This document shows positions 23,701-44,680 of a DNA stretch of 64,000 nt, one piece after another (within the stretch, counting starts at the first letter, position 1; each line of letters begins with the position of its first letter). The notes under the pieces are model-generated. The model was not told the DNA's origin, did not search any database, and worked only from the letters and a program-made list of their open reading frames with translations. The translations under genes and the position numbers were made by a program. Origin of the DNA: Minisyncoccota bacterium (GTDB taxonomy: Bacteria; Patescibacteriota; Minisyncoccia; Phycocordibacterales; SW-6-46-9); the NCBI GenBank assembly GCA_040905385.1, contig JBBDRP010000002.1, positions 226,292 through 290,291 on the forward strand. The letters are read 5' to 3'.

Positions 23701-26700
23701 ATCTTAACCGCGGATATATGGAATCAGGTTGTAGCGGTTGTAAATGGTACTAGCGCAATTTTGTATCATAACGGTCAGGAGATAACTTCAGGAACAATCG
23801 ATGCATATACAGGTAATGGCAATAATATTGCTTTTGGTGATAAACCACTAAGTTCAGGGTCTAGCATGAATGCTCTTAATGGGTCTCTGGATGAAGTTTA
23901 TATTTACAATAGTTTATTGTCTACTGACTGGATTGCCGCCGAGTACACTAACCAGTCTACCACTACTGACTTCTACACCGTCGGTAGCCTGGAAGAGCCG
24001 AGCACCGTCTTTGGCGACGATACCGATGGTGACTTTGCTGACACCGACTGGACGTATCGCGAGAAGATCACCATCAACGCCGACCAGGTGGAGGAGACGC
24101 TGACCGACTTCCCGGTCTATGTTGATCTGTCTGATTTCGGATCACAGTTTTTCAACAATGTCCGCAGTGATGGTGGTGATATTCGCATCACCGCCAGCGA
24201 CGGCACGACCGAGCTGGCGAGGGAAGTCGTCTCTGTGGACACTGCCTCATCGACCGGGGAAATCCATTTCAAGGCCGACGAGATCGACGCCGAGGCCGAT
24301 ACCGACTTTTACATTTACTATGGCAATACCGCCGCGGTCGACTACGTCGTTACGGATACGTACGGCCGTAACGCGGTGTGGAGTAACGGCTATGCTGGAG
24401 TTTGGCACACAGGCGAAGACTCTGCTACACAAACGTTTGATTCTACTGGTAACAATAATACGGGAAACTTTCAGGATAACTTACCAACCACGCAGTCTGG
24501 AAAGATTGGAGATACGCAAGATTTTGATGGCACTAGTGATTATATTGATGCGGGTACTGACTCTAGCCTAGACATCACAACTGAAATCACGGTCGGTGTC
24601 TGGGTGAATCCTGATAATACTGGTGGTGACTATACAGGAATAGTAAATAAAAGCAGAGCAGATACGGCTGGTTTCTGGATGGGGTATTCAGCGAACGGTG
24701 ATATAGTTAGATGGGAGACTAATGATGCAGGAGGAAGTTGGCATGAAGTTGATATGCCTTTAATAGATGCCGAAGTAGGAGAATGGAATCACTTCGTAGG
24801 TGTTTATGATGGTAGTGAGCTTATAGGTTATAAAAATGGTTCTCAATCAGGAACTCCTGATAGTTTTACTGGAGAATTTGAAACTACAACTAATTCCCTA
24901 AAGTTTGGAGATTTTGAGGTTGCGGATAGATGGTTTGATGGCATGCTTGATGAGATTCGTATCTCCAGTGCTGCGCGCTCTGCCGACTGGATCGCCACCG
25001 AATACAACAACCAAAATGCTCCTAGTAGCTTCTACACCATCTCTGGCAGCCCTTCCGAAGCGCCGGTGCTGCTGACTCCGGAAGATACGGCCACCGAGGT
25101 GAGCCGGGCGCCGACGCTGGACTGGCAACCGGTCCAATCAGCTACCGAGTACCAGGTGCAGGTGTCGCCAACCTCGACCTTCTCATCTATCACGGTGGAT
25201 GCGAACGCAACCGACAGCGAGATAGCTCTGGGCACGCCGTATCCGTCATTGGATGCCAGCACAACCTATCACTGGCGCGTACGCACGGTGGATGGGCAGA
25301 GCTTCGGCGCCTGGTCCACCGACTTTTCCTTTACGACAGCTGCTGGTCTGGCCGGCAGCGGTACCGAGGCCGATCCGTACCTCATCAGTACTCCACAAGA
25401 CCTGGATGACATTCGCAATGACCTGGATGCCTACTACCGACTTACGCAGGATATTGATCTGACCTTTGATACACGGGATCCAAATGGAGATTTTTATAAT
25501 GCTGGTGATGGTTGGCAGGAAATAGATAACTTTGATGGTGAATTCGATATGGGTGGATATAGTATTATCGGAGCCCGAATTTTTAATGGATTTTTTGATA
25601 ACATTGGATCAAATGGGCTTATACATTCAGGAAAATTTGCCGATTGCGAAGTTCATGGAGGATATGATCAAGGAGTTATTAACGAAACAGGAGGGGCAGG
25701 ATTAATTAAAGAAGTTGTAGTAGATAATTGTTCTGTGGCGTCGGGCAATACTACAAGCCGTAGAATTGGTGGATTTAGCGGTAGAGGAATCTCTTCTCAG
25801 GATGTTATTTCACGTAATCTTGTGCTCGGTGGAGAAGGTGATAAGGGTGCAAACACTGGACGAGTTTTTGATACCAAGGTGTACACACGAAACCTCATTC
25901 ACAATGTGAGTTGGGAGGGTGTAAGTGGTCAAACTGAAAATCCTCTTTTTGGGTGGATTCAATCTGGTGGAAATCCGACGGTAAATGATGTGTTTTTTGA
26001 TGATGATACGCTTGATTATGCCGGAACTCGAACTGACCAAGGTACCGGGCTAACTACCACCGAGGCGCAGGATATTACTACGTATGAAAATGCTGGGTGG
26101 GACATCGTTCCGATTGCTCAGCACGACGGGCAGCGGTCAACAGCAATTTGGTACATCGATGATGGCAATGATTATCCACGTCTGTGGTTCGAGTACGAGG
26201 GTGAGGGCTGGAAAGATGGCTGGAGCCACCGTGAGAAGGTCACGATCAAGTCATCGGCGGTGGATGCGACGCTGGAAGACTTTCCGGTCTATGTCGACCT
26301 AGCTGATTTCGGCGCCACGTTCTTTAATAACGTCCGTACTGATGGTGGCGATATTCGTGTCACCAAGGCGGACGGTACTACCGAGCTGGCCCGGGAGGTT
26401 GTCTCGGTAGATACCGCCTCCTCGACCGGTGAGTTACACTTCAAGGCCGACCGCCTCGCCAGCACCACCGACACAACCTTCTACGTTTATTATGGTAATC
26501 CAGATGCGTCCGAGTACGCGACTGATTATGCGTATGGTCGCAATGTTGTCTGGAGCGATTATGAAAACGTCTACCACCTCGACGAGCAAGGAGACGGTAC
26601 CACCGGAGAGCATATCGACTCAGCCGGTAACCACGACCTGACGGCTGGATACTTTTCTGCTGGTATTCCGAATCGAGTTGATGGAAACCTCGGGTACGCG

Positions 26701-29700
26701 CAGCAGTTTAACGGAACTGATACATCAATTGGTGGTGTATTTAATCTGAGTGCTAAGGATGAAATGGTCGTGTCGGTATGGGCGCAACCAACGGCCAGCG
26801 GGCAGTCCAGCCGGTCGGGAATATTTGGATACAGTGAATATAACGTTAGTTCAGCCTATCGATTGGGTGGATTTAGATTTACAAGCAGTGATTTAGGTGG
26901 GCTTGATATCTATCTAGATGATGGAAGTGCCGAGTGGTTTAACTCCACACTGACACTGAATCTCAACCAATGGAATTACATGGTGGGTAGATTTGAATCA
27001 GGGGTTACAAAAGATATTCTTATCAATGACCAGTGGGATGAACGTACTGCACCGACAGGCAGTTTGGCAGCGGGGACCTCAAGCATAGCACTTGGTGAAG
27101 TGCAGGAAGATCCTGTGAACCGCCGATTTCAGGGGCTCATTTCCGAGGCTCGCTACAGCACCGTAAAGAGGAGCCAGGAATTTTATGCCGCTGAGTATAC
27201 GAACCAATCGACCACCACCGATTTCTATACGGTCGATACGACACCAATCCAGATTGACAGCATCGAGGATTTGGATGATGTACGCAACGACCTATCAGCC
27301 AGTTATGAGTTGACGCGCAACCTGGATTTCGACGACTGCGCCTCTTATGACACCTGTGCCAATATGGACACCTACACAACCGGCAGTGGGTGGGACCCAA
27401 TTGGCACGAGTGGCGACCCTTTTACAGGTCAATTTGATTTCAAAGGACACTCAATTACCGGATTAATGATAAATAGATCTAGCACCGACTATCAAGGACT
27501 TTTCGGGGCCTTGGGACTTGATGGTTATATTCATAGCGGTTCAATTATTAATGCAGATGTTATCGGTGAGAAACGTACTGCAGTACTTGTTGGTTTCATG
27601 GATGGAAATGCACTTGTCGAACATATTTCTATTAGGAATAGTACTGTTGGAGGGTCGTACAGTGGTAACAAGGGACTGTTAGTTGGATGGTTAAATAGCA
27701 CTACTTCTCTGATAAGAGATTCTTATGCTCAAGGGCAAGCAATTGTAGGTAATTATAGTGCTGCAGCTGGAGAAATACATCCTGTTGATGCTCAGTTTCC
27801 TTCTGAAAATCTTTACTTTGTCGGAACTCTTGATTATGGTGCCAGTAGCCCTGTTGGAGGTATTGATGCGGCAGATAATGCTTTAAATAGTTTTTATGAT
27901 CAGGATGTTGCAGGAGAAATTTTTGGAGCAGATCCAGGAAATGCAACAACAACGGTCATAATGCAGGACATTGATACGTATATTAATGCTGGCTGGGACA
28001 TCGTCCCGATCGAAGAGCATGACGGGCAGGAGTCGACGGCGACCTGGTTTATTGATGATGGTAATGACTATCCGAAGCTGTGGTTTGAACGCGAGGGGGC
28101 CCAAAGCACAGCGTTTGGCGACGACCCCGACGGCGACTTTGCCGACACCGACTGGAGCCACCGCGAGAAGATCACCATCAACCCCGACAAGGTGCCGACG
28201 GTTACAAGTAGCGTTAATTCGCGCGTCACGCAATCCAGTGATGATGCTGAGGAAAAGCTTTCCGATAATAGTATGCTTATCTCAAGTTCTGATCTTGAAC
28301 TTATCGCTGATGGCACGTCGCCTGGCGGCGATCAAGAGATCGGACTGCGTTTCCAGAACATTACTATTCCCCAGGGTGCCGTGATCACCAACGCCTACAT
28401 CGAGTTCCAGACCGACGAGACCAACAGCACTACCACCAACCTAACCTTCCGCGCGGAGGATAATAACGATACGACGACCTTTACTACCGGTAGTGGTGAC
28501 ATTACCAACCGATCCAAGACAGCCGCCTCGGTTGATTGGAACAACGTGCCGGCCTGGAATACGATTAGCGAAAAGCATCAGACCCCGGATCTGTCGGCGG
28601 TGGTGCAGGAGGTGGTTGATCGCGCCGGCTGGCAGAGTGGTAACGCGATGGCGATGTTTGTCACTGGTGACGGAACCCGGATTGCCGAGGCATATGATGG
28701 CGAGGCGGCCAATGCACCGCTGCTGCATATCGAGTACGAATCTCCAGCGGCAACCTTGACGGATTTTCCAGTTTATGTTGATCTGGCCGATCTGTCGGAT
28801 ACGTTTTTCGTCTACGTAGCAAATGACGGGGCGGACATCCGCGTGACGGCCGGTGACGGGCTGACCGAGCTTCCGCGGGAAGTCGTGTCTGTGGATAGCG
28901 TCGGGAAGACGGGTGAGCTGCACTTCAAGGCCGATGCAGTATACGGGTCGGTCGGGACTGAGTTCTACATCTACTACGGTAATCCGTTTGCTGTGAATTA
29001 TTCAGCCACGGATACGTATGGTGCTCAGAATGTGTGGAATAGTAATTATGTGTTGGTTAGCCATGATGGAGGTGCCACAGATTCAACAAGCAATGGAAAT
29101 AATGGAACTGCTAATGGTGATGCTACTGCAGGGATAGCTACTGGTAAAGTTGGTACTGCTGCAGAATTTGATGGAGTTAGTGATTCATTCCAGATAGCAG
29201 ACGACGCTTCGCTTGATACACCCTCCGCAATCACTATTACAGCTTGGGTAAATGCGAACTCATTCAAGTCTGACTTCAGCGAAATTGTTAGTAAGAAGTT
29301 TGATACTGGTTATGATTTCTTGGTCGACAATGATGCTGGCACAAACGATTTGGAATTCATAAGTTTTGATGCAGATATTCTTCAGTATTCCAACGATAAC
29401 GTGGTTGCCACTAGTACTTGGTCTCATGTGGCTGTTACATATGATAAATCAAATGTAAATTTTTATGCGGATGGCTCGTATGAAGGAGGCGGTGCAGAGA
29501 CGGCAGATATTGGTACGAATAATGAGGATCTGTATATCGGTAGCGATGCAGGTAATAGCTGGGAGTGGAATGGACTTATTGATGAAGTCAGGATACTCTC
29601 TAGTTCTCAATCTGCTGACTGGATTACAGTCGAGTATAATAACCAGTCGTCTCCATCCACCTTCTACTCTGTAGGTACGCAGGAGATTAGCGGCGAAGAC

Positions 29701-30423
29701 ACGATACCGCCGTATCCAGATCCGAGCGAGTTTGCCGTGGCACCAGATGGGGCCAGCACGTCGTCGATCACGATGACGGCTGCCACCTCTACGGACGGCG
29801 AGGGATCAACCCCGGTCGAGTACTACTTCAACTACCAGGCGTGTGCTGCCGATGCCGGCACCGGCTGGAGTCACTCTGGTTGGTTGGTGGAGACGTCGTA
29901 TACCGACGAGAATCTCCAGGTTAACCAGTGCTACAGCTACCGCGTAAAGACCCGGGATAGCCTGGGTAACGAGACGGCGTACTCGGCAACATCCAGTGCC
30001 TACACCGCCGCCGCAATTCCGGACGCGCCGTCACTTTCCAACCCGACGGAGACGACGCTGGACTTGGTGAACAATGAAGGTGCCAACCCAACCGCTAATC
30101 CCGACACCACCTTTGCGGTACAAGTCAGCGATACCTCACCAGGAGACCAGACCTGGACAAACCAGTACGTCAACGCCAGTGGTGAGCCGTCAGCCACCGC
30201 CGTCTGGCTGACAGACAGCCAGCTGAGCGGCTTGACGGTTACCATGCTGGAGCCGAACATCACCTACACCTTCCGCACCAAGGCTCGCAATGAAGACGGT
30301 GACGAGACCGGCTGGTCGGCGACAACCGTGGCCTCGACCTCGTCTGACTACCCAGATGAGACGGACACCTCAACCCGTCTGCGCGGCGGCTCGACCATCC
30401 GCGGTGGCAGCACAGCGCAGTAA
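20728..30423 (+). CDS. Giant (3231 aa) surface protein, paralogous to gene 2. Has an N-terminal TM anchor, at least seven DUF2341-like modules interleaved with LamG_3 domains, two FN3 domains and a distinct insert domain (nt ~28225-28745). C-terminus ends in ...LRGGSTIRGGSTAQ.
   Basis: Same module signatures as 13177-19737. Long near-identical stretches shared with gene 2 (e.g. AAGLAGSGTEADPYL.STPQDLDD.RNDL; TTAEAQDI.TY.NAGWDIVPI..HDG..STA.WYIDDGNDYP.LWFE). Terminal FN3: YYFNYQACAADAGTGWSHSGWL...YSYRVKTRDSLGNET. Confidence 0.85.
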   Translation: MMILEFYKKVKEFIGRHPRMVAVVGVTVAVLVILGSVGTQAAWYSSTGDGPTWQYRQKITIDADQVDAELTDFPVYVDLSDFGSDFFSNVAADGGDIRITTADGTTELAREVVSVDTASSTGELHFKADSLSASSDSEFFIYYGSSGASDYAVTDTYGRNAVWSDYRFVSHDAGYTDSSGALAQGTLFNGITPNDSAGIIGKATLFDKPSQQYVQLGDTIIPPSSDFTFDVWAEQFDFTGTTVSDESLILTQNDSGSTNATFVHGSNARQNHITGLWDINNSRTLEGPDIRGNGWVKLQIRRDGNEFNLFHNNVLQDATTTAITIPDAANAYLGAYENNGPERFFTGLISEVRSAYTARSDDWIATEYTNQNNTTDFYTIGAQDTQPDSNVAFGANSYGDFADTRWSHREKITIDAAQVDADLADFPVYVDLADLSTTFFQNTNVTCGDIRVTAGDGLTELAREVVACDTASSTGELHFKADSLSASSDTEFYIYYGNNSANNYIHDEQFGRDNVWSDGYAGVWHLSEGSGEARDSTANSSNGTNNGATQGVVGQVGGGYDFDGTDDYVKITENFVSSPSELTISAWFKKESGGDVYETVLHKGSADTVGSSDYWLGVSGDDNLTATIGANTGVGWDAGETTTSVNLGQWYHMAATWDGSVVEVYLDGQFNKQYSLSSYGDLNTDTRFGSSADGTNYQFRGTASEIRIYNKSISGDEISATYRNQNSPTTFYTVGVNEASAGLFGDNPSGDFADADWGYREKITIDADQVGATLTDFPVYVDLSNLSATFFDNVTASGGDIRVTAGDGTTQLAREVVSVNTASSTGELHFKADSISSTTDTSFYIYYGNPNADDYAVGDTYGAENVWSNETLAAFHLEENAVNSSDDNFNGTINGSPAWVTGVIYSALDFLGTNGNNVEISSALQSDITNNSYTVKAWINPRLTGSSNQAIIDTGSEGDGQMRFFMNDTDGSFKIQNTASFTGTGVRSSAGILTADIWNQVVAVVNGTSAILYHNGQEITSGTIDAYTGNGNNIAFGDKPLSSGSSMNALNGSLDEVYIYNSLLSTDWIAAEYTNQSTTTDFYTVGSLEEPSTVFGDDTDGDFADTDWTYREKITINADQVEETLTDFPVYVDLSDFGSQFFNNVRSDGGDIRITASDGTTELAREVVSVDTASSTGEIHFKADEIDAEADTDFYIYYGNTAAVDYVVTDTYGRNAVWSNGYAGVWHTGEDSATQTFDSTGNNNTGNFQDNLPTTQSGKIGDTQDFDGTSDYIDAGTDSSLDITTEITVGVWVNPDNTGGDYTGIVNKSRADTAGFWMGYSANGDIVRWETNDAGGSWHEVDMPLIDAEVGEWNHFVGVYDGSELIGYKNGSQSGTPDSFTGEFETTTNSLKFGDFEVADRWFDGMLDEIRISSAARSADWIATEYNNQNAPSSFYTISGSPSEAPVLLTPEDTATEVSRAPTLDWQPVQSATEYQVQVSPTSTFSSITVDANATDSEIALGTPYPSLDASTTYHWRVRTVDGQSFGAWSTDFSFTTAAGLAGSGTEADPYLISTPQDLDDIRNDLDAYYRLTQDIDLTFDTRDPNGDFYNAGDGWQEIDNFDGEFDMGGYSIIGARIFNGFFDNIGSNGLIHSGKFADCEVHGGYDQGVINETGGAGLIKEVVVDNCSVASGNTTSRRIGGFSGRGISSQDVISRNLVLGGEGDKGANTGRVFDTKVYTRNLIHNVSWEGVSGQTENPLFGWIQSGGNPTVNDVFFDDDTLDYAGTRTDQGTGLTTTEAQDITTYENAGWDIVPIAQHDGQRSTAIWYIDDGNDYPRLWFEYEGEGWKDGWSHREKVTIKSSAVDATLEDFPVYVDLADFGATFFNNVRTDGGDIRVTKADGTTELAREVVSVDTASSTGELHFKADRLASTTDTTFYVYYGNPDASEYATDYAYGRNVVWSDYENVYHLDEQGDGTTGEHIDSAGNHDLTAGYFSAGIPNRVDGNLGYAQQFNGTDTSIGGVFNLSAKDEMVVSVWAQPTASGQSSRSGIFGYSEYNVSSAYRLGGFRFTSSDLGGLDIYLDDGSAEWFNSTLTLNLNQWNYMVGRFESGVTKDILINDQWDERTAPTGSLAAGTSSIALGEVQEDPVNRRFQGLISEARYSTVKRSQEFYAAEYTNQSTTTDFYTVDTTPIQIDSIEDLDDVRNDLSASYELTRNLDFDDCASYDTCANMDTYTTGSGWDPIGTSGDPFTGQFDFKGHSITGLMINRSSTDYQGLFGALGLDGYIHSGSIINADVIGEKRTAVLVGFMDGNALVEHISIRNSTVGGSYSGNKGLLVGWLNSTTSLIRDSYAQGQAIVGNYSAAAGEIHPVDAQFPSENLYFVGTLDYGASSPVGGIDAADNALNSFYDQDVAGEIFGADPGNATTTVIMQDIDTYINAGWDIVPIEEHDGQESTATWFIDDGNDYPKLWFEREGAQSTAFGDDPDGDFADTDWSHREKITINPDKVPTVTSSVNSRVTQSSDDAEEKLSDNSMLISSSDLELIADGTSPGGDQEIGLRFQNITIPQGAVITNAYIEFQTDETNSTTTNLTFRAEDNNDTTTFTTGSGDITNRSKTAASVDWNNVPAWNTISEKHQTPDLSAVVQEVVDRAGWQSGNAMAMFVTGDGTRIAEAYDGEAANAPLLHIEYESPAATLTDFPVYVDLADLSDTFFVYVANDGADIRVTAGDGLTELPREVVSVDSVGKTGELHFKADAVYGSVGTEFYIYYGNPFAVNYSATDTYGAQNVWNSNYVLVSHDGGATDSTSNGNNGTANGDATAGIATGKVGTAAEFDGVSDSFQIADDASLDTPSAITITAWVNANSFKSDFSEIVSKKFDTGYDFLVDNDAGTNDLEFISFDADILQYSNDNVVATSTWSHVAVTYDKSNVNFYADGSYEGGGAETADIGTNNEDLYIGSDAGNSWEWNGLIDEVRILSSSQSADWITVEYNNQSSPSTFYSVGTQEISGEDTIPPYPDPSEFAVAPDGASTSSITMTAATSTDGEGSTPVEYYFNYQACAADAGTGWSHSGWLVETSYTDENLQVNQCYSYRVKTRDSLGNETAYSATSSAYTAAAIPDAPSLSNPTETTLDLVNNEGANPTANPDTTFAVQVSDTSPGDQTWTNQYVNASGEPSATAVWLTDSQLSGLTVTMLEPNITYTFRTKARNEDGDETGWSATTVASTSSDYPDETDTSTRLRGGSTIRGGSTAQ

Positions 30424-30452: not shown

Positions 30453-30481
30453 TTAGAGGTAAGAGCTAAGAGACATGATAT

Positions 30482-30886
30482 ATGAGCAAAGAACCCAAAA
30501 AGGAGAACAAAATTACATCATTCACTGATCTGACAACGTGGCAAAAAGGCCATGAACTAGTAGTGGAGATTTATGAGACAACCGAGGAGTTTCCTAAGCG
30601 AGAGGTGTATGCGCTTACCGACCAAATTCATCGATCGGCTGTATCAGTTACTTCCAACATTGCTGAAGGGTTTGGTCGTTTTAGCTACGCCGATAGACTA
30701 CATTTTTACCGCATGGCTCGTGGATCACTGACAGAATTACAGAATCAACTCTTGATTGCTCGTGATGTTGGGTATCTCGGCACGGACAAATTTAAAGCCT
30801 TGGCAAGTAAAACCACTACGGTAGAGAAATTACTACAAGGCTTGATTCGAGCCACGAGTGATAGGAAAGATTCACATACCTCTTAG
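30482..30886 (+). CDS. Four-helix-bundle protein (23S rRNA intervening-sequence protein family, TIGR02436-like)
   Basis: ...TDLTTWQKGHELVVEIYETTEEFPKREVYALTDQIHRSAVSVTSNIAEGFGRFSYADRLHFYRMARGSLTELQNQLLIARDVGYL... matches the family pattern (W..A..L...IY.....FP..E...L..Q..R...SI..NIAEG). Confidence 0.75.
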   Translation: MSKEPKKENKITSFTDLTTWQKGHELVVEIYETTEEFPKREVYALTDQIHRSAVSVTSNIAEGFGRFSYADRLHFYRMARGSLTELQNQLLIARDVGYLGTDKFKALASKTTTVEKLLQGLIRATSDRKDSHTS

Positions 30887-31033
30887 CTCTTGTCTCTTGG
30901 ATGTGAAATGCTCTGATATATGTGATTTTGCTACAATGCATAGGAATCGCAGGTGTGGATAGTAAAACCTGTACCTCTGTTATACTAAAGGAGTAGCTTT
31001 TTTTAACTAACTCTTTATATGATGTAAGCCTAT

Positions 31034-32254
31034 ATGTCGCATAAGATCCTCATGTTTGGTTGGGAATTTCCGCCGCATAACAGTGGGGGTCTTGGCGTTG
31101 CCTGTGAGGGAATTGCCCGCGCCTTGGTGCGGGCGGGGCATAATCTGCACTTTGTGCTGCCACGTTCTTACGATCTACTCGATAAAAACATCTCCTTTGT
31201 ATTTGCTGATACCGAGCGCGAGACGCTCAAGGTGACGCCGATCGCCTCGACGCTGTACTCGCCGTATGCCACCAGTACCAGCTACCAAGAGGCAGTGAAA
31301 AAGGGGCTGATAGCACCCGGTCCGTACGGAAACTCACTAATGGCCGAGGTGATGCGGTACAGCTATCAGGCTGGTGCTATTGCGGAGGAGACTGATCCAG
31401 ATATCATCCACGCTCATGACTGGCTGTCCTTTCCGGCGGCGATGGCGGCGAAGCGGGCGACTGGTAAGCCCTTCGTGGCGCATGTGCACGCCACCGAGTA
31501 TGACCGGACCGGTGGTAACGGGCTCAACCAAGAGGTTTATGATATCGAGCGGGCCGGGGTGCAGGCGGCCGATAAGGTGCTCGCTGTTAGCGCCTTTACC
31601 CGCCAGACGCTAATTGACCATTACGGGCTAGATCCAAAAAAGGCTGGTGTCGCCCACAACGGTATCGAGAGCGAGCAGAAGCCGAAGCTACAGCCGGTAC
31701 TAAAGAATATAAAGAATCGTGGCGGTAAGATTGTGCTTTTTCTCGGTCGGATCACGATCCAGAAGGGGCCGGATTACCTGATGGAGGCGGCGCGTCGGCT
31801 TTTGGAAATCCGCGACGACACCTACTTTGTAGTGGCCGGATCCGGGGATATGCATGACCAAATGGTCGAGCGAGCTGCCGAGTTAGGTCTGGCCGACCGG
31901 GTATTTTTTCCGGGATTTGTGCGTGGCTGGAAGATTGATCAGCTGTATCAATCAGCCGATCTTTTTGTGATGCCGTCGGTGTCCGAGCCGTTTGGTATTA
32001 CGCCGCTGGAGGCGCTGATGAACAAGACGCCGGTTTTGATTTCCAAGCAGTCCGGAGTTTCGGAGGTGCTGGATCACGCGCTGACCGTCGACTTTTGGGA
32101 TACCGAGAAGATGGCCGACCAGATGAATGCGGTACTGGAGCACCCGGCGCTGTATGCCGAGCTGTCACGAAACGGGAATAATGAGGTGCATAAGATTAGC
32201 TGGGATGATACTGCTCGGTCTATTACTGCTGCGTACGATTTGGTTGCTGGGTAA
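31034..32254 (+). CDS. GT4-family glycosyltransferase, archaeal-type glycogen(starch) synthase-like
   Basis: N-terminal ILMFGWEFPPHNSGGLGVACEGIARALVRAGH (E..PP..GGLG motif). C-terminal GT-B fold with EPFGITPLEA (glycosyl transferase group 1). Confidence 0.8.
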   Translation: MSHKILMFGWEFPPHNSGGLGVACEGIARALVRAGHNLHFVLPRSYDLLDKNISFVFADTERETLKVTPIASTLYSPYATSTSYQEAVKKGLIAPGPYGNSLMAEVMRYSYQAGAIAEETDPDIIHAHDWLSFPAAMAAKRATGKPFVAHVHATEYDRTGGNGLNQEVYDIERAGVQAADKVLAVSAFTRQTLIDHYGLDPKKAGVAHNGIESEQKPKLQPVLKNIKNRGGKIVLFLGRITIQKGPDYLMEAARRLLEIRDDTYFVVAGSGDMHDQMVERAAELGLADRVFFPGFVRGWKIDQLYQSADLFVMPSVSEPFGITPLEALMNKTPVLISKQSGVSEVLDHALTVDFWDTEKMADQMNAVLEHPALYAELSRNGNNEVHKISWDDTARSITAAYDLVAG

Positions 32255-32336: not shown

Positions 32337-33605
32337 ATGGCCACTGTTTGTTTTTATTTTCAAGTACACCAGCCGTACCGCCTGCGGAACTTTTCTATTT
32401 TTGAGACCACGGAGGCAGCTGACGGCACGCCTCGAGACTATTTTTCTGATGTGTCCGAGACGTCGAGAAATAATAGGAGGGTGATGCAGAAGGTGGCACG
32501 TAAGTCCTACTTGCCAACCAATCAGACCTTATTGAAGCTACTGCGCGATCATCCCGAATTTCGCGTCTCTTTTTCCTTTTCTGGACTTGCGCTGGAGCAG
32601 TTTGCCGAGTTTGCTCCGGAGGTCTTGGAGTCATTTAAGGCACTGGTTGGTACTGGCCAAGTCGAAGTGCTTTCCGAGACGTATCATCACTCGCTGGCCT
32701 TCTTTTATGACAGGGATGAGTTCACCAACCAGGTTGCCGAGCATGGCGAGCTAATTTACGACCTGTTTGGCGTCACCCCACGCGTATTTCGGAATACGGA
32801 GCTCGCCTACAATAATGATCTGGGCCAGTGGGCAGACGAGCACGGCTACGACGGAGTACTGGCAGAGGGCTGGGATCCGGTGCTGGAGTGGCGTTCGCCA
32901 AACTTTGTGTACCAGCCGCCTGGTGCCGAAAAGACCCGACTTCTGCTGAAAAATTACAAGCTTAGCGATGATATTGCCTTCCGATTTTCAGATAGAGACT
33001 GGAAGGGTTGGCCACTAACGGCCGAGAAGTTTGCCGGCTGGGTGAGCGACCATAACGCCGCCCGAGATACCAGCGGCGAGCTGATAAATCTGTTTATTGA
33101 TTACGAGACCTTTGGCGAGCACCAGTGGGAGGATACGGGTATTTTTGACTTCTTGAGGAAGTTGCCGGCTGCACTTCTGGAGCATCCGGACAACGCCTTC
33201 ATGACACCGTCAGAGGTGATTGCTAATCATGAAGTTCGCGACGAGATGGACATTCCGCACACGGTGACCTGGGCAGATACCGAGCGCGACCTATCGGCCT
33301 GGCTCGGCAACGAGATGCAGCAGTCGGCGGTCAAGGCGCTGTATGATCTGAAACCGCTCGTGGTGGCCACGGACGACCCGGACATTCTTCGTGACTGGCA
33401 GCGCCTGCAGACGTCAGACCACCTGTACTACATGTGCACGAAGTGGTCTGCCGATGGTGATGTGCATGCGTATTTCAATCCGTATGATTCACCATACGAG
33501 GCGTTTGTGACCTACATGAATGTACTTACTGATCTACGTGAGCGCTGCGCGCCGCAGAACGAGTCTCCCACAGCCATGGCTCCCGCGGCAGTTGAAGTTG
33601 GGTAA
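32337..33605 (+). CDS. Glycoside hydrolase family 57 (alpha-amylase / alpha-glucan branching or 4-alpha-glucanotransferase-like)
   Basis: N-terminal FYFQVHQPYRL GH57 signature. Length 422 aa fits the GH57 catalytic (beta/alpha)7 region. Confidence 0.7.
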   Translation: MATVCFYFQVHQPYRLRNFSIFETTEAADGTPRDYFSDVSETSRNNRRVMQKVARKSYLPTNQTLLKLLRDHPEFRVSFSFSGLALEQFAEFAPEVLESFKALVGTGQVEVLSETYHHSLAFFYDRDEFTNQVAEHGELIYDLFGVTPRVFRNTELAYNNDLGQWADEHGYDGVLAEGWDPVLEWRSPNFVYQPPGAEKTRLLLKNYKLSDDIAFRFSDRDWKGWPLTAEKFAGWVSDHNAARDTSGELINLFIDYETFGEHQWEDTGIFDFLRKLPAALLEHPDNAFMTPSEVIANHEVRDEMDIPHTVTWADTERDLSAWLGNEMQQSAVKALYDLKPLVVATDDPDILRDWQRLQTSDHLYYMCTKWSADGDVHAYFNPYDSPYEAFVTYMNVLTDLRERCAPQNESPTAMAPAAVEVG

Positions 33606-33631
33606 TTTTCTACGGTATAATAGAAGCAGCG

Positions 33632-33769
33632 AGTAGAAAGCCGAAAGTTCAAAGTCTGTAAAGTCATAAAGGATCTTTACAAAATATAGCCGTGACGGCA
33701 TACTCACTCTCTCGATTTATAAGGAAAATCTAATTGCAACTTTTAACTTTTTACTTTTGACTAATTTTT
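33632..33769. repeat. ~135-bp intergenic element, copy 1. Has inverted AAAGTC/ACTTT-rich arms (GTAGAAAGCCGAAAGTTCAAAGTCTGTAAAGTC ... AACTTTTAACTTTTTACTTTTGAC) and a conserved core GGAAAATCTAATTGCAAC.
   Basis: Homologous to 37010-37129 (core GAAAAATCTAATTGTAAC, arms GTCGAAAGTCTAAAGTCAAAAGTCGTAAAGTT / AACTTTCGACATTTGACTTTTAGC). Immediately upstream of the GH15 start. Confidence 0.7.
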
Positions 33770-33772
33770 AAT

Positions 33773-35758
33773 ATGCCACGATCATTTACAGCCGGAAATG
33801 GAGAGATGCTTGTCGGAGTCGATGAGTATGGTTTCATGCAGGATCTCTACTATCCACACATCGGATTAGAGAACCATGTTGGTGATGCACACCAACACCG
33901 CATCGGTATTTTTGTTGATGGTGGAATTCACTGGCTGTCGGACAAGGATTTTGAGGTTTTGGCCACAACAAATCCGGAGACGATGATGTCCGATATCGTG
34001 GCCCGTAACACTAAGATCGGTGTAACAGTGACCATGCAGGACGTTGTTTATAATGAGAAGCCAATTTTAGTACGTGAGGTAACGGTGAAAAATACCTGGG
34101 ATGTGGTCCGAGATATAACATTGTATTTTGGTCAGGAGTTCGAGATTAGTCAGTCACGGCAGGCGAGTACTGCATACTTTGACCCAGCCAATGAATGCAT
34201 CATCCATTACCGCGGTCGCCGCGCCTTTTTGATGAACGCGGTTGATGATGACGGTTCTTTTACACAGTATACGACTGGTGTTTCCGGGATTGAGAACAAA
34301 GAGGGATCCTGGCGTGATGCCGAGGATGGTCAGCTGCAGGGTAATCCAATAGAGCACGGACCGGCTGATTCTGTTTTTGGACTGGAGCGTTCGTACGAAG
34401 GCAAGTCTGAGCGCACCACCTACTTCTGGCTGGTGGCAGGAAAGTCTATTAATGAGGTAATCAGGCTTAACAAGTATGTTCACGACCGTACACCGGAGCA
34501 CCTGCTTAAAACAACGAGTAACTACTGGCGTGCCTGGCTGGATCGCTGTCCGGATCATTTTCATGACCTTTCCGAGCCGGCGCAGGATCTCTTTAGTCGG
34601 TCGTTGTTAATTATTCGAGCGCATGCCGACAAGGATGGCGGTATTCTGGCTTCGAGTGATTCGGATATGCTGCAGCGGGGTAAGGACTCGTACGAGTATG
34701 TTTGGCCGCGGGATGGTTCCTACATCACCCGAGCGCTGGATCAGGTGGGCGCCTGGAAGGTCAGTGAACGGTTCTTTTACTTCATGAATTACGTTATGGA
34801 CGGTGACGGCTACCTAATGCATAAGTATGGTCCGGACGGGTCGCTGGGATCATCCTGGCATCCGTGGTTTTATCAGGATATGTACCAGTTGCCGATTCAG
34901 GAGGATGAGACGGCAACGGTTCTGCATACGCTGTGGCAGCATTACCAGCAGTCGCAGGACCTAGAGTTCATTGAGAGTATTTACAACTCCTTTATAGAAC
35001 GAGCGGCGAACTTTTTGATAACCTATCGACACCACGAAACCAAGCTTCCAAAACGCAGTTATGATCTCTGGGAGGAGCGGATTGGTGTGCATACCTACAC
35101 GGCCGCGTCGGTGTATGGTGGCCTGCAGGCAGCTAGCAATTTTGCGGGACTTTTGGGTAAGGATGTCGAGGAGAAGCATTACAAAGCCAAGGCAAATGAG
35201 ATCAAGGATGCAATTTTGAAGTATTTATATAACGAGGACGAGGGCTGCTTTGTACGGAGTGGTGAGACCGAGGATGGTGCCTTTGTTCAGGACACCACCA
35301 TTGATTTTTCATCTACGTTTGGTGTCTGGTACTTTGGCGTACTGCCGGGTCGAGACGATCGACTAGTTAACTCGATGGCGATGACGCAGGAAGCACTAGG
35401 TGTACCTGGTGTTGGTGGCTTTGCTCGTTACGAAGGTGATACCTACTATCGCAACAAAAATCATGAAGGTGTGACTGCACCCGGTAATCCGTGGTTTGTG
35501 ACAACATTATGGTACGCCCAGTACGTGACCGAGCTAGCTGACAATGAAGAGGAGATCAAGCAGGTGGCGCATATTCTGGAGTGGGTGACAGACCACACTA
35601 CGACGGCTGGGCTGCTTTCCGAGCAGCTAGATCTTAAGACTAGCGAGCCGCTGTCGGCAACACCATTGGTCTGGAGCCACGGGGAGTACGTTATTACCGT
35701 GGTGAAGTATCTCGAGAAGCTTGAGGAGCTTGGGCTCTGCCGCAATTGTAAGAAGTAG
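33773..35758 (+). CDS. GH15-family glucoamylase / glucodextranase-like (bacterial-archaeal type, N-terminal beta domain + (alpha/alpha)6 barrel)
   Basis: YEYVWPRDGSYITRAL (GH15 W.RD motif), ...SSWHPWFYQ..., 661 aa. Confidence 0.8.
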   Translation: MPRSFTAGNGEMLVGVDEYGFMQDLYYPHIGLENHVGDAHQHRIGIFVDGGIHWLSDKDFEVLATTNPETMMSDIVARNTKIGVTVTMQDVVYNEKPILVREVTVKNTWDVVRDITLYFGQEFEISQSRQASTAYFDPANECIIHYRGRRAFLMNAVDDDGSFTQYTTGVSGIENKEGSWRDAEDGQLQGNPIEHGPADSVFGLERSYEGKSERTTYFWLVAGKSINEVIRLNKYVHDRTPEHLLKTTSNYWRAWLDRCPDHFHDLSEPAQDLFSRSLLIIRAHADKDGGILASSDSDMLQRGKDSYEYVWPRDGSYITRALDQVGAWKVSERFFYFMNYVMDGDGYLMHKYGPDGSLGSSWHPWFYQDMYQLPIQEDETATVLHTLWQHYQQSQDLEFIESIYNSFIERAANFLITYRHHETKLPKRSYDLWEERIGVHTYTAASVYGGLQAASNFAGLLGKDVEEKHYKAKANEIKDAILKYLYNEDEGCFVRSGETEDGAFVQDTTIDFSSTFGVWYFGVLPGRDDRLVNSMAMTQEALGVPGVGGFARYEGDTYYRNKNHEGVTAPGNPWFVTTLWYAQYVTELADNEEEIKQVAHILEWVTDHTTTAGLLSEQLDLKTSEPLSATPLVWSHGEYVITVVKYLEKLEELGLCRNCKK

Positions 35759-35760
35759 CT

Positions 35761-35779
35761 CAGAACATGAAATGTTCTG
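35761..35779. terminator. Shared hairpin between the convergent GH15 (+) and MFS (-) genes (CAGAACAT-GAA-ATGTTCTG)
   Basis: 8-bp stem in the 21-bp gap between two converging stop codons. No strong T-run; function as a terminator is inferred. Confidence 0.5.
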
Positions 35780-37000
35780 CTACAGCGTATCGACAATTGG
35801 AAGGGCAAGTAACCCACCAACTAAGAGCAGGCCGGCGACACCAACAAAGATAAACTCAAACGGTGCAAAGAGAAGTACTGCACTTGCCAGTACCGGAGCA
35901 ACAATATATGCAAGTGGTCTGATCATTCTCAGGACAGACAACTCATCGGTGTCATAACTTTCGACATGCTTAAAGAAGTAGCCGTCGGACATGACTTCGA
36001 TCATAGTGGCGCCGATACGAGTTCCAAATAGCAGAGCTGCCCATACCCAGATCTCGGTGCTCTCTACAAAGCCCAGTAGAGCGGTAAAGAAGGCAGCAAT
36101 GATAAATCCACCGATTAGGAGTTCCTTTTCACCAAGATAGTGGTCAGCGATCTCTCCGAGAGGACGACCCAGTAAGACAAAGGGAATTAGCATAATAGAA
36201 AAGATAATTCCAATAGCACTAAAGGAGAGACCGATGAATTGGTAGAGGTAGATTGGGGTGTATACGACCATCATGGCGTAAAACATATTCAGTACGAGCA
36301 TAGTTCCAAGTGTAAAACGGACGTTTACATCGCGCCAGACTCTTTTGAGACTTTTCCAGAGCGTTGTGCGGGCATAATCAGCGTCGGGGAAGTTACTGAA
36401 CTTCTTTAGAAGAATCGTTAGCAGCGGCAGAATAACAACAGCTGAAATTAGATAAATCTGCCAGAAGGTATCCTCACCGACGGCGAATCCGGCAATCAGC
36501 GGTCCTAGAATGAAGGCGATGTAGGTAAGAGTAATCAAGGTTCCGCGAATCTCGCCTGTCTTGGAATCATCAGAAAATTTCTCTAAAAATATATCTAGGT
36601 TAAAGCGAATCACGGCGGTAAGCATCCAGTGTGCCATGAAGGCAGTGATAAGCAGCCAGATAGGAGCGCTTTGGATAGCCAAAATACTCACGGCGATTAG
36701 TTCTGCAATTACCAGAGCAAGCGTAGTAGCATAGTTACCAAACTTCGGTAGCGCTCGGGTAACAGCAGACATGGTCATGATTGCCAGCACAGCCGCGGCG
36801 CTAAAGGCGATACTGGTTGATGTCTCGGAAAGTATGGTGTTCAAAAAGTTGGAGTTAATGTACAGCGGAAAGACGTAATGCAGCGTAAAGAAGAAGTACA
36901 TGATGTACACCACAACTCGCAGCTCCTCAGGGGAATCTGGCTTATCCTCGGTATCCTCAGTCCTTGTGCGTTTGAGATGGAATGGTACGTGAATTTGCAT
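35780..37000 (-). CDS. Polytopic membrane transporter, probably MFS family
   Basis: 406 aa with ~11-12 hydrophobic helices. No specific family motif recognised. Confidence 0.6.
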   Translation of the reverse strand: MQIHVPFHLKRTRTEDTEDKPDSPEELRVVVYIMYFFFTLHYVFPLYINSNFLNTILSETSTSIAFSAAAVLAIMTMSAVTRALPKFGNYATTLALVIAELIAVSILAIQSAPIWLLITAFMAHWMLTAVIRFNLDIFLEKFSDDSKTGEIRGTLITLTYIAFILGPLIAGFAVGEDTFWQIYLISAVVILPLLTILLKKFSNFPDADYARTTLWKSLKRVWRDVNVRFTLGTMLVLNMFYAMMVVYTPIYLYQFIGLSFSAIGIIFSIMLIPFVLLGRPLGEIADHYLGEKELLIGGFIIAAFFTALLGFVESTEIWVWAALLFGTRIGATMIEVMSDGYFFKHVESYDTDELSVLRMIRPLAYIVAPVLASAVLLFAPFEFIFVGVAGLLLVGGLLALPIVDTL

Positions 37001-37009
37001 ATTTAAAAG

Positions 37010-37129
37010 AGTCGAAAGTCTAAAGTCAAAAGTCGTAAAGTTTAACGTTCATAATATCACGCCTCCAGTTTGGATTTATTAGAAAAATCTAATTGTAACT
37101 TTCGACATTTGACTTTTAGCTTTTAACTT
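37010..37129. repeat. ~135-bp intergenic element, copy 2 (see 33632-33769)
   Basis: Same arm and core sequences as copy 1. Lies immediately upstream (on the minus strand) of the MFS start. Confidence 0.7.
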
Positions 37130-37158
37130 AACTTGTTCTTACCTAGTATAACAAAAAA

Positions 37159-37199: not shown

Positions 37200-37830
37200 G
37201 GGTTGAGTTATTTAGCCAGCGTGAAGGATGGCCAGTATTTATCTATTACAAAAGCCGCCATCTTCTCGATAGCGGCTTTCTCGAACGACTTGAATGAGCA
37301 CCCGATATCTCTTGCTGCTAAGCAGGAAGAGAACGGTTGTGCGAATTTACCCGCACACTCGAAGCTTCGAGTGTTAGCTGGCAAAGCCAGCGCGGGTTTA
37401 TGTCCGGAAATTATATGTAATTTCCCTGGACCAAGTCGGCGGGTAAAGCGAGCGCTTCGACTTGCGGAGTGCTCGCGGCTTCCGAAGTCAAGACTTCTTA
37501 TCTTGTTATTTGATTAGCGAAGTCGAGCGACTCAAGTCGGCGGAATAAGCTTGGTGCCGTGGAGTACACGGTGCCAAGCGGCTTAGGGAGTTTAAGTAGC
37601 AATCTGGCGAACTGTTAATTACTCGAAGGACTCAAGTCCGCACGAGTGCTCGCAAATCACAAAACTTTGTAGATAGCGTAGACATGAAGCGAGCTGAAAA
37701 TCTTCGACACAGTAGTGCGAAGATTTCAGTGAGCCAACACTAAGGATGGAATGGATCATATCGAACTATTGATTAATCCAACGCCTCAAGGCGGTAAAAA
37801 TTGTCGGAAATTACATTCTGTTGTAGACTG
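37200..37830. ncRNA. Candidate large structured non-coding RNA region (~630 bp, ORF-free, dense hairpins). Strand and identity unknown.
   Basis: Only a spurious 104-aa ORF. Contains a perfect 20-nt palindrome ACACTCGAAGCTTCGAGTGT (37355-37374); a 12-bp stem CTTGGTGCCGTG-GAGUA-CACGGTGCCAAG with two G-U wobbles (37550-37578); GTCCGGAAATTA-TATG-TAATTTCCCTGGAC; CTGAAAATCTTCG...CGAAGATTTCAG; and repeated words AAGTCGGCGG, CTCAAGTC, GAGTGCTCGC. Confidence 0.3.
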
Positions 37831-42651: not shown

Positions 42652-44304
42652 ATGTCTAAAAACGTTATCTTTCATGAGGAGGCACGTCAGAAGCTGATGG
42701 CTGGAATCGACAAGGTTGCGAATGCGGTAAAGGTGACGATTGGTCCGCGTGGACGCAATGTTGTACTGGATAAGGGCTACGGAGCGCCGACCATTACTAA
42801 TGATGGAGTTTCCATTGCTAAGGAAATTTCGCTCAAGAACAAGTTCGAAAACATGGGGGCCGAGATTATCAAGGAGGTAGCCGAGAAGACCAACACGGCA
42901 GCTGGTGACGGAACCTCGACAGCCACGATTCTGGCTCACGCCATTATGACCGAGGGGCTGAAGCGAACAACGCTCGGTGCCAATGCAATGGTGATTCGTG
43001 AGGGTATCGAGGAGGCCGCTCGTGACGCGGTAGAGGAGCTAATGAAGACGGCGACCAATGTACGCGGTGACGACATTCAGCGTGTGGCAGCTATCGCTGC
43101 CGAGAGCGAGAAGCTTGGTGAAATCATTGCCGACACGATGGAGAAGGTCGGCAAGGACGGTGTGGTGACGGTAGAGGAGTCACGTACCACCGGACTGTCT
43201 TCGGAGGTGGTTGAGGGACTAGAGTTTGATAAAGGATTTGTGTCACCGTACATGGTGACCGATTCAGAACGTATGGAGGCGGTGTATGAAGACACGGCGG
43301 TGCTGGTAACCGACCAGAAGATCTCAAGTGCTAAGGATATTCTACCACTGCTGGAGAGTCTGGCACAGGGAGGCCAAAAGGAGCTGGTGATTATCGCTGA
43401 TGATATTGAGGGCGAGGCACTAGCGACGTTTGTGGTTAACAAGCTTCGCGGTGGATTTAACGTGCTGGCTATCGAAGCACCTGGGTTTGGTGACGCCAAG
43501 AAGGATCGACTCGAGGATATTGCGACGGTCGTTGGTGCGCAGGTTATCTCAGAAGATCGTGGACACTCGCTGGACAAGGCAACCGAGTCAATGCTCGGAA
43601 AGGCCGGAAAGATTATTGCCTCAGAAGACAAGACAACCATCGTAGGAGGCGCAGGAACCAAGAAGGATATCGAGGCCCGTGCCGAGAAACTTCGCACGCA
43701 GGCCGAGCATGCTGATGCATCTTATGCTCGTGAGAAGCTCGAAAAGCGTGCCGCTGCATTGACCGGTGGAGTGGCGGTAATCCGGGTTGGTGCTGCTACC
43801 GAGACCGAGATGAAGTATCTCAAGCTGAAGATCGAGGATGCGGTGAATGCTACCAAGGCCGCTATTGAAGAAGGGGTCGTTGATGGTGGTGGAGCCGCGT
43901 TGGTAAAGATTGGCAAGAAGCTTCGCGACAAGCTCGAGAAGATGGATGCCAATGATGATCACAAGGTTGGGTACATGATTCTTACCCGCGCGCTGGACGC
44001 ACCGTTCAAGCAGATTGTTCAGAACGCCGGAAATGAAGAGGCGTCGGCCGTGCTGCATGACGTTCGTATCGGCAAAAAAGGATACGATGCCAAGAACAAC
44101 GTGATTGTAGACAACATCTCCTCAGCTGGAATTATTGATCCGGCTAAGGTGGTGCGAACGGGAATCGAGAACGCTGCCTCTGCAGCCGCAATTCTCCTGA
44201 CTACGGAGGCGGCAGTTGCTGAAGACCCAGACGATGATGATGATCAGCAGGGTGGCGGTGGCATGCCGGGTGGAATGGGTGGCGGTATGCCGGGTATGAT
44301 GTAG
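42652..44304 (+). CDS. groEL: Chaperonin GroEL (C-terminal GGM repeat)
   Basis: ...[17 protein letters not shown]...[13 protein letters not shown]... and C-terminal [16 protein letters not shown]. Confidence 0.97.
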
Positions 44305-44366
44305 TAAAAATCTATGGCGGACAGTGATCCGCAGACACTCTTGCGCGCTTGAGCGCTTCGAGAAAG

Positions 44367-44398
44367 CCACCGTCTCTGCGACGGCGGCTTTTGTTATT
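44367..44398 (+). terminator. Probable groEL terminator hairpin
   Basis: AAAGCCACCGTC-TCTGC-GACGGCGGCTTTTGTT. Confidence 0.55.
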
Positions 44399-44399
44399 A

Positions 44400-44680
44400 A
44401 ACTATCTACAACAGATAGTGATGGGAGAACGTAGTTGACGGCTTGAGCCGTTGGATTGATTGGTAGTCGAGCCAGGAAAGCCGCCAGCACTCCGCCAGTC
44501 GGAGCACTGGCTTATAACCGAATGGTTTGGGAAAATAGCCGTCTCCTGGACGGTCATTTTTGTTATCGGATAACCAGTAAGGTTTTACACTGGAAACCAC
44601 AAAATCTGCGGAAGGTCTTACAGAAAGCAGGTACTCGTTCGTATTGCGAAAAGACCGCCGGTTGACGGTCTTTTTTTAAT
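44400..44680 (+). ncRNA. Candidate ORF-free transcript (~270 nt) ending in a strong terminator; possible small RNA or leader
   Basis: No ORF of 60 aa or more on the + strand. Internal hairpin GCCAGCACTCCG-CCAGT-CGGAGCACTGGC with a symmetric 2x2 internal loop. Terminator AGACCG-CCGGTTGA-CGGTCT-TTTTTTT at 44650-44678. Confidence 0.35.

Follow-up and report, generated by a model that had tools for sequence, protein, structure and literature searches.

In a 64,000-nucleotide stretch of a Minisyncoccota bacterium genome (GenBank assembly GCA_040905385.1, contig JBBDRP010000002.1, positions 226,292 to 290,291 of the forward strand; hereafter the window), two convergent genes, one for a GH15 glycoside hydrolase and one for an MFS transporter, are bracketed by two copies of an internally palindromic element, here called A and B. 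What is this element, and why does it stand upstream of both genes? A first reading of the letters alone (the sequence-only reading) had offered two answers: a shared operator or promoter module through which one repressor would control both genes, or a repeat resembling a miniature inverted-repeat transposable element (MITE) that had mobilised the gene pair or could recombine it out. We consider another answer likely, namely that A and B are two diverged copies of an intervening sequence (IVS)-type cassette, without its open reading frame (ORF), inserted in the leaders of GH15 and MFS. For the window this answer would be deflationary, leaving neither a new sugar regulon signal nor a mobile glucoamylase cassette, but two decayed remnants of a selfish element.

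Two homologous elements in the same orientation

The initial description of the elements stands. A and B are found, to within a few bases, at the positions first given for them, they are homologous and lie in the same orientation, and the genes that they flank were named correctly, with matches to PF00723 (GH15) and PF07690 (MFS). Each element consists of a left arm of 4-5 AAAGTCN heptads, a centre of about 55-65 nt and a right arm of complementary NGACTTT heptads, and each is directly upstream of one gene, A ending 10 nt before the GH15 ATG and B starting 4 nt from the MFS start codon. We compared the locus with contigs L002, L005, L006, L007 and L008 from relatives, whose GH15 is 75-84% identical to that of the window (77-84% in L002, L005 and L006). 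The elements and their parts, with revised bounds, are as follows.

33634..33762, plus strand: element A, ORF-less and IVS-like, in the GH15 leader, sense relative to GH15; absent at the same site in L002, L005 and L006
33636..33672, plus strand: left arm of A, about five degenerate heptads (GAAAGCC GAAAGTT CAAAGTC tgTAAAGTC atAAAGG); lag-7 score 16/28
33704..33733, plus strand: remnant in A of the 3' end of a PF05635 gene (..SLSRFIRKI-stop; compare the L005 C-terminus, SRLLSGFIRKI-stop), which includes the 'core' of the sequence-only reading
33738..33762, plus strand: right arm of A, complementary heptads (AACTTTT AACTTTTT ACTTTTG ACT), ending 10 nt before the GH15 ATG; lag-7 score 21/28
37005..37132, plus strand: element B, ORF-less and IVS-like, in the MFS leader, antisense relative to MFS; absent at the same site in L002, L005, L006, L007 and L008
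37005..37042, plus strand: left arm of B, heptads (AAAAGAGTC GAAAGTC TAAAGTC AAAAGTC GTAAAGTT), beginning 4 nt away from the start codon of MFS; agrees with the left arm of L005 at 23/26 positions
37057..37092, plus strand: remnant in B, the last 12 codons and stop of a PF05635 gene (SRLQFGFIRKI-stop), within a 76-nt block that is 63/76 identical to L005 6387-6462
37097..37132, plus strand: right arm of B, complementary heptads (AACTTTC GACATTT GACTTTT AGCTTTT AACTTAAC), read from the letters and from arm pairing

Aligned locally on the same strand, A and B score 58, compared with 18.7 ± 2.9 (maximum 32) for 1000 dinucleotide shuffles and with 31 when one of them is reversed; the two are therefore homologous and directly oriented. 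The likeness is concentrated in a common block identical at 27 of 30 nt, and no identical stretch exceeds 19 nt. Within the window the pair stands alone: the 16-mer core AAAATCTAATTGYAAC occurs exactly twice, clusters of AAAGTCNAAAGTC-like heptads on both strands are confined to A and B (16 matches against 6.4 ± 2.7 expected), and an nhmmer profile built from A and B found no third copy. Both elements are also present in L001 (Logan SRR27977661), an independent assembly of the same strain, where A aligns identically and both copies score the same against the profile as those of the window.

A probable parent: a PF05635 cassette

The profile of A and B matches L005 at 6374-6463 (E 3e-16) and, weakly, at 6044-6072. 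Between these matches lies a gene of 114 aa (6081-6425) assigned to PF05635, '23S rRNA intervening sequence protein', and to TIGR02436, 'four helix bundle protein' (E 7e-36), whose product has solved relatives in PDB entries 2GSC and 2RLD. The whole unit, of about 420 bp, is located between the GH15 and MFS stop codons of L005; its left arm (AAAGTCA TAAAGTCG AAAGTCT AATGTCC AAAGTAA AAAGTG) reaches the start codon of the PF05635 gene and its right arm begins just past the stop codon. The correspondence with B is close, 23 of 26 positions being identical in the left arm and 63 of 76 in a block that takes in the right arm, the stop and the 12 codons before it.

The remnants can still be translated: B gives SRLQFGFIRKI and A gives ..SRFIRKI where L005 has SRLLSGFIRKI, each followed by the stop. 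Judged by this comparison, the conserved core to which the sequence-only reading drew attention, (G/A)GAAAATCTAATTG(C/T)AAC, is the end of a decayed gene, its last 10-12 codons and stop. Nothing more of the PF05635 ORF is recognised in A or B, apart from a short and tentative match that may represent its first three codons in B (AT-AATATC), whereas the ORF is intact in the L005 homologue; A and B are therefore derivatives and not intact members of the family. An internal deletion history of A, drawn from a gap-tolerant alignment, was rejected, its scattered blocks of 5-7 nt being unreliable. We regard it as likely that A and B are ORF-deleted derivatives of an IVS-type PF05635 cassette. The comparison with a MITE thus survives in part: the arms are inverted, and A and B derive from a larger element by internal loss and are not autonomous, but the ORF of that element has no transposase domain.

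The insertions are specific to the window lineage

Did the elements arrive with the gene pair, or were they added to a pair already in place? The order GT-GH57-GH15-MFS-RNase J-SBP5 is kept in relatives with or without the elements, and the GH15-MFS pair is thus ancestral at this site and was not mobilised. The following features frame the two leaders.

33592..33621, plus strand: sigma-70-type GH15 promoter, TTGAAG-18-TATAAT, upstream of A; promoter scan, 10/12 matches
33773..35758, plus strand: GH15 glycoside hydrolase gene, 661 aa; PF00723, with TIGR01577 'oligosaccharide amylase' below cutoff
35780..37000, minus strand: MFS transporter gene, 406 aa; PF07690, N-terminus conserved in L002 and L005
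37145..37152, minus strand: probable MFS -10 box, tGtTATACT, upstream of B in the direction of transcription; read by eye rather than found by the promoter scan, at the position of the conserved tacggTATAAT of L002 and L005
37153..37190, either strand: hairpin resembling a bidirectional terminator (AAAAAACCTGGGAAC...GTTCCCAGGTTTTTT), at the limit of the MFS promoter region; equivalent hairpins in L002 and L005

The ATG at 33773 is supported as the GH15 start by N-terminal codons that are conserved at the DNA level in the relatives, and the TATAAT box directly 3' of the GH57 stop is conserved in L002, L005, L006, L007 and L008. From this box to the ATG there are 151 nt in the window as against 21-27 nt in L002, L005 and L006, and A accounts for the longer leader. 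On the other side, L002 and L005 show a terminator hairpin, tacggTATAAT, about 45-47 nt and the MFS ATG; the window shows the hairpin, tGtTATACT, B and the ATG, with a leader of 144 nt (37001-37144). The nearest relatives, L002, L005 and L006, thus have the same -10 boxes, neither element and leaders of only about 20-47 nt, and since the elements are missing from leaders in which the -10 boxes are conserved, A and B are lineage-specific insertions. Taken from these alignments, both probably sit between a promoter and a start codon. Two promoter-like matches inside the arms (TTGACT-17-GATCAT in A and TTGACT-17-TTAAAT in B) are probably incidental, for transcripts from them would start inside or at the coding sequence.

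In L007 and L008 the GH15 leader contains unrelated inserts, or none. That of L008 (3622-3722, about 100 nt) carries GGAATC/GATTC-type repeats and folds with a z of 0.4; that of L007 (4797-4967, about 170 nt) has a strong internal hairpin and a z of -2.2. The interval between the -10 box and the GH15 ATG appears to be a recurrent point of insertion or expansion.

The public gene calls for L001 start GH15 11 codons (33806 instead of 33773) and MFS 29 codons (36913 instead of 37000) downstream of the starts conserved in the relatives. Neither gene has a Shine-Dalgarno motif, and the late calls may come from inserted elements that leave no recognisable ribosome-binding context. No record exists for the exact 661-aa GH15 protein; a 650-aa version matches L001.

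Arm pairing and the predicted transcripts

With inverted repeats as arms, each element would form an imperfect stem of about 30 bp in either orientation. For B, the duplex between the arms has an energy of -29.7 kcal/mol (shuffled, -10.2 ± 3.3) and on both strands the whole element is more stably folded than its shuffles (z -3.4 and -2.9); for A, the duplex reaches -18.6 kcal/mol (shuffled, -9.0 ± 2.6). Terminal inverted repeats forming a long stem, a hallmark of IVSs, are therefore found in both, more weakly in A. Tandem heptamers are found as well, the arms of A and B having lag-7 scores of 16-21/28 against 11.9 ± 3.4 in control flanks. Arm-only duplexes across the elements that we examined span -19 to -32 kcal/mol, compared with -8 to -16 for shuffled arms. 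Energies between the 110-nt upstream and downstream flanks were set aside as a general test: for AT-rich cases from the Candidate Phyla Radiation (CPR), the values for PF05635 genes (-36 to -97 kcal/mol) overlap the tail of the controls (-29 ± 7, minimum -44), and arm-only duplexes and lag-7 scores were used instead. The covariance models of Rfam gave no match at gathering thresholds, and only chance hairpin matches at E up to 10.

These data suggest the following course of events. The intact unit comprises a left AAAGTCN array, a gene for a 114-aa four-helix-bundle protein of the PF05635/TIGR02436 family (S23p, Avd-like) and a complementary right array starting at the stop codon. Two such units would have inserted in the window lineage between the promoters and start codons of GH15 and MFS, and both would then have lost nearly the whole ORF, the arms and the last 10-12 codons being left. 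The elements would be transcribed within the two leaders, so that each mRNA would carry a 5' arm (AAAGUCN)n and a 3' arm (GACUUUN)n ending about 4-10 nt before the AUG, paired in a stem of about 30 bp with small bulges. RNase III would cut this stem and trim the leader to near its ancestral short length; by analogy with rRNA IVSs, we put such cleavage at slightly less than an even chance. Restoration of a short leader would explain why the elements are tolerated in leaders and operon junctions. An uncut stem could lower initiation on these leaders, which have no Shine-Dalgarno motif. For the host the insertions are probably neutral or have a mild modulating effect, at most on mRNA stability or translation.

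Complementary heptad arrays at other PF05635 loci

Close relatives of the L005 protein occur in several settings. Identical proteins are always encoded between GH15 and MFS (L005, L231-240), proteins 79-81% identical between a holin-like gene and MYG1, downstream of SecA (L241-245), a 71-74% relative adjoins PCMT (L246), and a 64% relative adjoins PmbA in Marinimicrobia. All these loci have AAAGT(C/A)N arrays as left arms and the complementary arrays as right arms. The right arm of the Marinimicrobia element (L248-L257, 1843-1880) differs between samples by exactly 14 nt, or two heptads, and three assemblies have N-gaps there. In the GH15/MFS neighbourhood the family occupies three positions across two sister lineages and none in other relatives, which is the behaviour of a mobile or often gained and lost element, and this clustering hints at local movement.

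How general is the design? We surveyed 12 distinct PF05635 loci spread over five phyla, their sources being CPR bacteria, Marinimicrobia, cyanobacteria, Azospirillum and Riemerella, and the generality of what follows rests on these 12. Short tandem repeats, mostly of 7 nt, flank every one of them, and the two arrays are mutually complementary in 11, although the repeat unit differs from element to element. The best lag is 7 nt in 9/12 upstream and 8/12 downstream flanks; flanks with this best period score 17-28/28 and the other PF05635 flanks 9-15, as against 11.9 ± 3.4 for the flanks of control genes. That the unit changes while complementarity is kept suggests that pairing as such is maintained.

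The window contains an intact element of a different subtype.

30456..30901, plus strand: 134-aa PF05635 gene (30482-30886) between inverted arms GAGGTAAGAGCTAAGAGAC and ACCTCTTAGCTCTTGTCTCTTGG, repeat unit TAAGAGN / CTCTTAN; PF05635 match, arm duplex -31.7 kcal/mol against -14.8 ± 3.4 for shuffled arms

The gene lies directly after that for a 3231-aa repeat protein. Its product is 37% identical to that of L005, its arms share a 12-nt perfect complement, and the right arm overlaps its stop codon. It was considered as part of a diversity-generating retroelement and rejected as such, neither a reverse transcriptase nor a template repeat being found.

Six plasmid PF05635 genes (L258-L263, from Nostoc, Anabaena sp. 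90, Azospirillum lipoferum 4B, Riemerella, Picosynechococcus PCC 7003 and Pseudanabaena) are each flanked by a repeat unit of their own, and for five of these genes the unit of the right arm is that of the left arm reverse-complemented. Two of the plasmid genes lie inside cas operons (cas10/cmr3 and cas6/cas4) and a third directly upstream of cas4.

No relatives of the PF05635 protein were found in viral contigs. A scan of viral sequence for AAAGTC heptad triplets returned 110 loci, mostly coding or unrelated tandem repeats, with an inverted partner array nearby in 7 of the 110. One phage contig from IMG/VR (L153, with Clp protease and gp3 terminase genes) holds at 2255-2412 an ORF-less hairpin, (AAAGTCA)x12 ... 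(TTTTGAC)x3, which directly adjoins, much as B does, the start codon of a gene on the minus strand. L160 (441-483) holds an arms-only hairpin, (AAAGTCC)x3 followed by (GACTTTC)x3.

We tentatively suggest that PF05635 genes between complementary heptad arrays might form one cross-phylum class of selfish cassettes, although the odds are somewhat against so broad a view. Such cassettes would insert into rRNA genes, mRNA leaders, operon junctions (including those of cas genes) and phage genomes and be tolerated by virtue of an RNase III-cleavable stem; the Avd-like protein would recognise the heptads of its own element and aid its mobility, possibly via an RNA intermediate. If so, no 'mRNA-leader IVSs' would have been recognised before A and B, and the small IVSs that lack an ORF in rRNA would be decay products of the same kind. 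The pattern connects the IVSs of rRNA with a far larger set of cassettes elsewhere in genomes, and makes the binding target of the protein and the movement of the element directly testable. A and B are an ordinary outcome, yet they belong to, and help to reveal, a poorly characterised and apparently widespread cassette design.

Comparison with known elements

IVS elements and their S23p/PF05635 proteins have been known for some 30 years, to our knowledge without an established function or mode of spread. The closest parallel to A and B is the IVS in the 23S rRNA gene of Coxiella burnetii, described as selfish and as excised by RNase III, in which an S23p ORF undergoing reductive evolution lies within terminal inverted repeats that form a 28-bp stem (PMC4990558). 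Upstream of that ORF are 3-4 tandem heptamers (GACAGAT), whose number varies between strains (PMC4990558), as the number of heptads does between samples of the Marinimicrobia element. The common points are an ORF of the PF05635/S23p family within terminal inverted repeats, heptamers beside the ORF and a tendency of the ORF to decay. The differences lie in the site and in the unit: the IVSs of 23S rRNA genes occupy helix 45 (or 25), whereas A and B are in mRNA leaders of protein genes, have lost the ORF and are built of AAAGTCN rather than GACAGAT. Excision by RNase III has been demonstrated for the Coxiella IVS and is inferred for A and B. No rRNA was found in the window, so A and B do not lie within an rRNA gene.

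In CPR bacteria, 23S_rRNA_IVP ORFs have been reported inside rRNA insertions (PMC11270868), and small IVSs without an ORF, of 83-112 nt, occur in the 23S rRNA genes of Salmonella and Photorhabdus (PMC2672173). The latter are, like A and B, short ORF-less hairpin inserts, and owe their tolerance to removal of the stem from the transcript. They differ in lying in rRNA, and their link to ORF-bearing IVSs is not established, whereas A and B keep a visible ORF remnant. PF05635 proteins have also been recognised as Avd-like (PMC10053308). Proteins of this family are homologous to the Avd of diversity-generating retroelements, with a PF22296 match below cutoff, but unlike in those systems no reverse transcriptase and no pair of template and variable repeats was found beside the PF05635 gene of the window or near A and B. 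Among the open-access papers and preprints searched, we found no description of heptad arms as a general property of PF05635 loci outside rRNA, or of ORF-less derivatives in mRNA leaders.

In size and placement A and B also recall the Correia elements of Neisseria and the ERIC and RUP repeats, which are about 100-150 bp long, have inverted ends, insert between genes or in leaders, pointing either way, and yield transcripts that form stems; stems of Correia elements are reported RNase III substrates. Those repeats occur in tens to hundreds of copies with defined target duplications, and derive from or depend on insertion sequences that carry a transposase. The parent of A and B, unlike these, carries a four-helix-bundle protein, and no target duplication is definable. 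A palindrome-associated element (PATE) of the IS200/IS605 type was also considered and rejected, as A and B have no separate subterminal hairpins.

Weighing the explanations

Several observations weigh against the view that A and B are inserted remnants of a PF05635 cassette. The hairpin of A is weak, its whole-element fold (z -1.3) not being significant alone. At both ends of A and of B the junction can be drawn at a TA dinucleotide, but the nearest empty sites have diverged too far for the junctions to be fixed, and L005 has no such dinucleotides. The scanned parts of the window contain no transposase, integrase or reverse transcriptase. A search for the 19-mer core AAAATCTAATTGYAACTTT in genome and metagenome contig collections, neither of which holds the source genome, returned 35 and 77 matches, a number expected by chance, none of them with heptad arms. 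One plasmid locus of the survey, that of Pseudanabaena (L263), has direct instead of inverted arrays, (AAAAGCT)x14 and (AAAAGCC)x9. The only two copies of the 64 kb both lie in the leaders of adjacent genes and are more clustered than random insertion predicts, which would allow for local hopping or for a later recruitment to some function. Finally, both the placement in leaders and the cleavage by RNase III are predictions from the letters.

The alternative that survives best, though an unlikely one, takes up this last possibility of recruitment and holds that A and B are an exapted regulatory module. A protein, either an AAAGTC-type PF05635 protein encoded elsewhere in the genome or a heptad-reading repressor, would bind the arrays and place GH15 and MFS under common control. 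Heptad operators are read in this way by the omega protein of pSM19035. Both copies are directly upstream of the start codons of neighbouring and possibly functionally linked genes and are the only two in 64 kb, and the repeat unit is common across phyla within one PF05635 clade (at least 64% identity) and differs in more distant PF05635 proteins, as protein-repeat specificity would have it. Yet the orthologous loci of L002, L005 and L006, the nearest relatives, lack both elements while keeping their -10 boxes. The copies are also opposite in direction relative to the genes that they precede, and their common core is leftover coding sequence. No candidate regulator was found beside the cassette, and the PF05635 gene of the window has a different heptad unit. 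Members of the family, moreover, occur at loci unrelated to sugar use, intact relatives sitting at SecA-holin-MYG1, HicAB-PCMT and PmbA-GT loci and in cas operons. On the same grounds the operator or promoter module for co-regulation of sugar genes that was first proposed fails, and the want of an association with sugar genes is a point that the sequence-only reading had itself named as refuting.

That the two genes evolved a dedicated leader RNA on the spot, a riboswitch or attenuator for instance, is very improbable. Such an RNA would suit the position of the elements in leaders, the long stem and the U-rich run after the 3' arm. Against it, the matches to Rfam families are limited to the chance hairpins mentioned above, the centres of the two RNAs would be reverse-complementary, and the elements are absent in relatives and homologous to a protein-coding cassette.

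Slightly less probable still is a composite mobile unit, in which A and B would be the ends that brought in the GH15-MFS pair or can loop it out. The direct orientation of the copies on either side of the pair is what such a unit would show, but the pair has the same order and the same neighbours in relatives that lack the elements, and in L005 a third position, between the two genes, is occupied. Neither GC content nor GC skew stands out along the pair, and identical stretches between the copies are at most 19 nt. Recombination between the direct copies may still occur, but it would have a common stretch of only 30 nt (27/30) to act upon, and no deletion variant was seen. The mobilised cassette of the sequence-only reading is contradicted by the conserved gene order. 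Chance resemblance of two AT-rich, low-complexity intergenic regions can be dismissed as negligible, the alignment of A and B, far from being no better than that of random AT-rich sequence, lying 13 standard deviations above dinucleotide shuffles with a 27/30 block and a third homologue at E 3e-16.

Neighbouring genes and other repeats of the window

The local gene order comprises the giant repeat protein, the intact PF05635 gene (30482-30886), a GT4/GT5 glycosyltransferase gene (31034-32254), GH57 (32337-33605), GH15, MFS on the minus strand, about 830 nt of non-coding sequence, and then RNase J and SBP5, both on the minus strand. The named homologues of the GH15 protein point to a genome of the CPR/Patescibacteria type. 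The roughly 630 nt between B and RNase J (37200-37830) hold no Pfam-supported ORF, show little conservation and have no Rfam match. A hairpin at 37245-37285 in this interval resembles the RNase J terminators of L006 and L007, and a 20-nt perfect palindrome lies at 37355-37374.

A GC-rich hairpin module of 46 nt at 37437-37481 is 93% identical to L008 7478-7523. An inverted copy lies at 44478-44513 (region 44357-44513), after a 550-aa ORF (42652-44304) whose product we take to be, probably, a putative GroEL. The module may represent a second small repeat family. Most of the repeat content of the window comes from very large repetitive ORFs between 3700 and 30423, among them that of the 3231-aa protein (20728-30423), with internal repeats of about 1-2 kb that are 60-84% identical.

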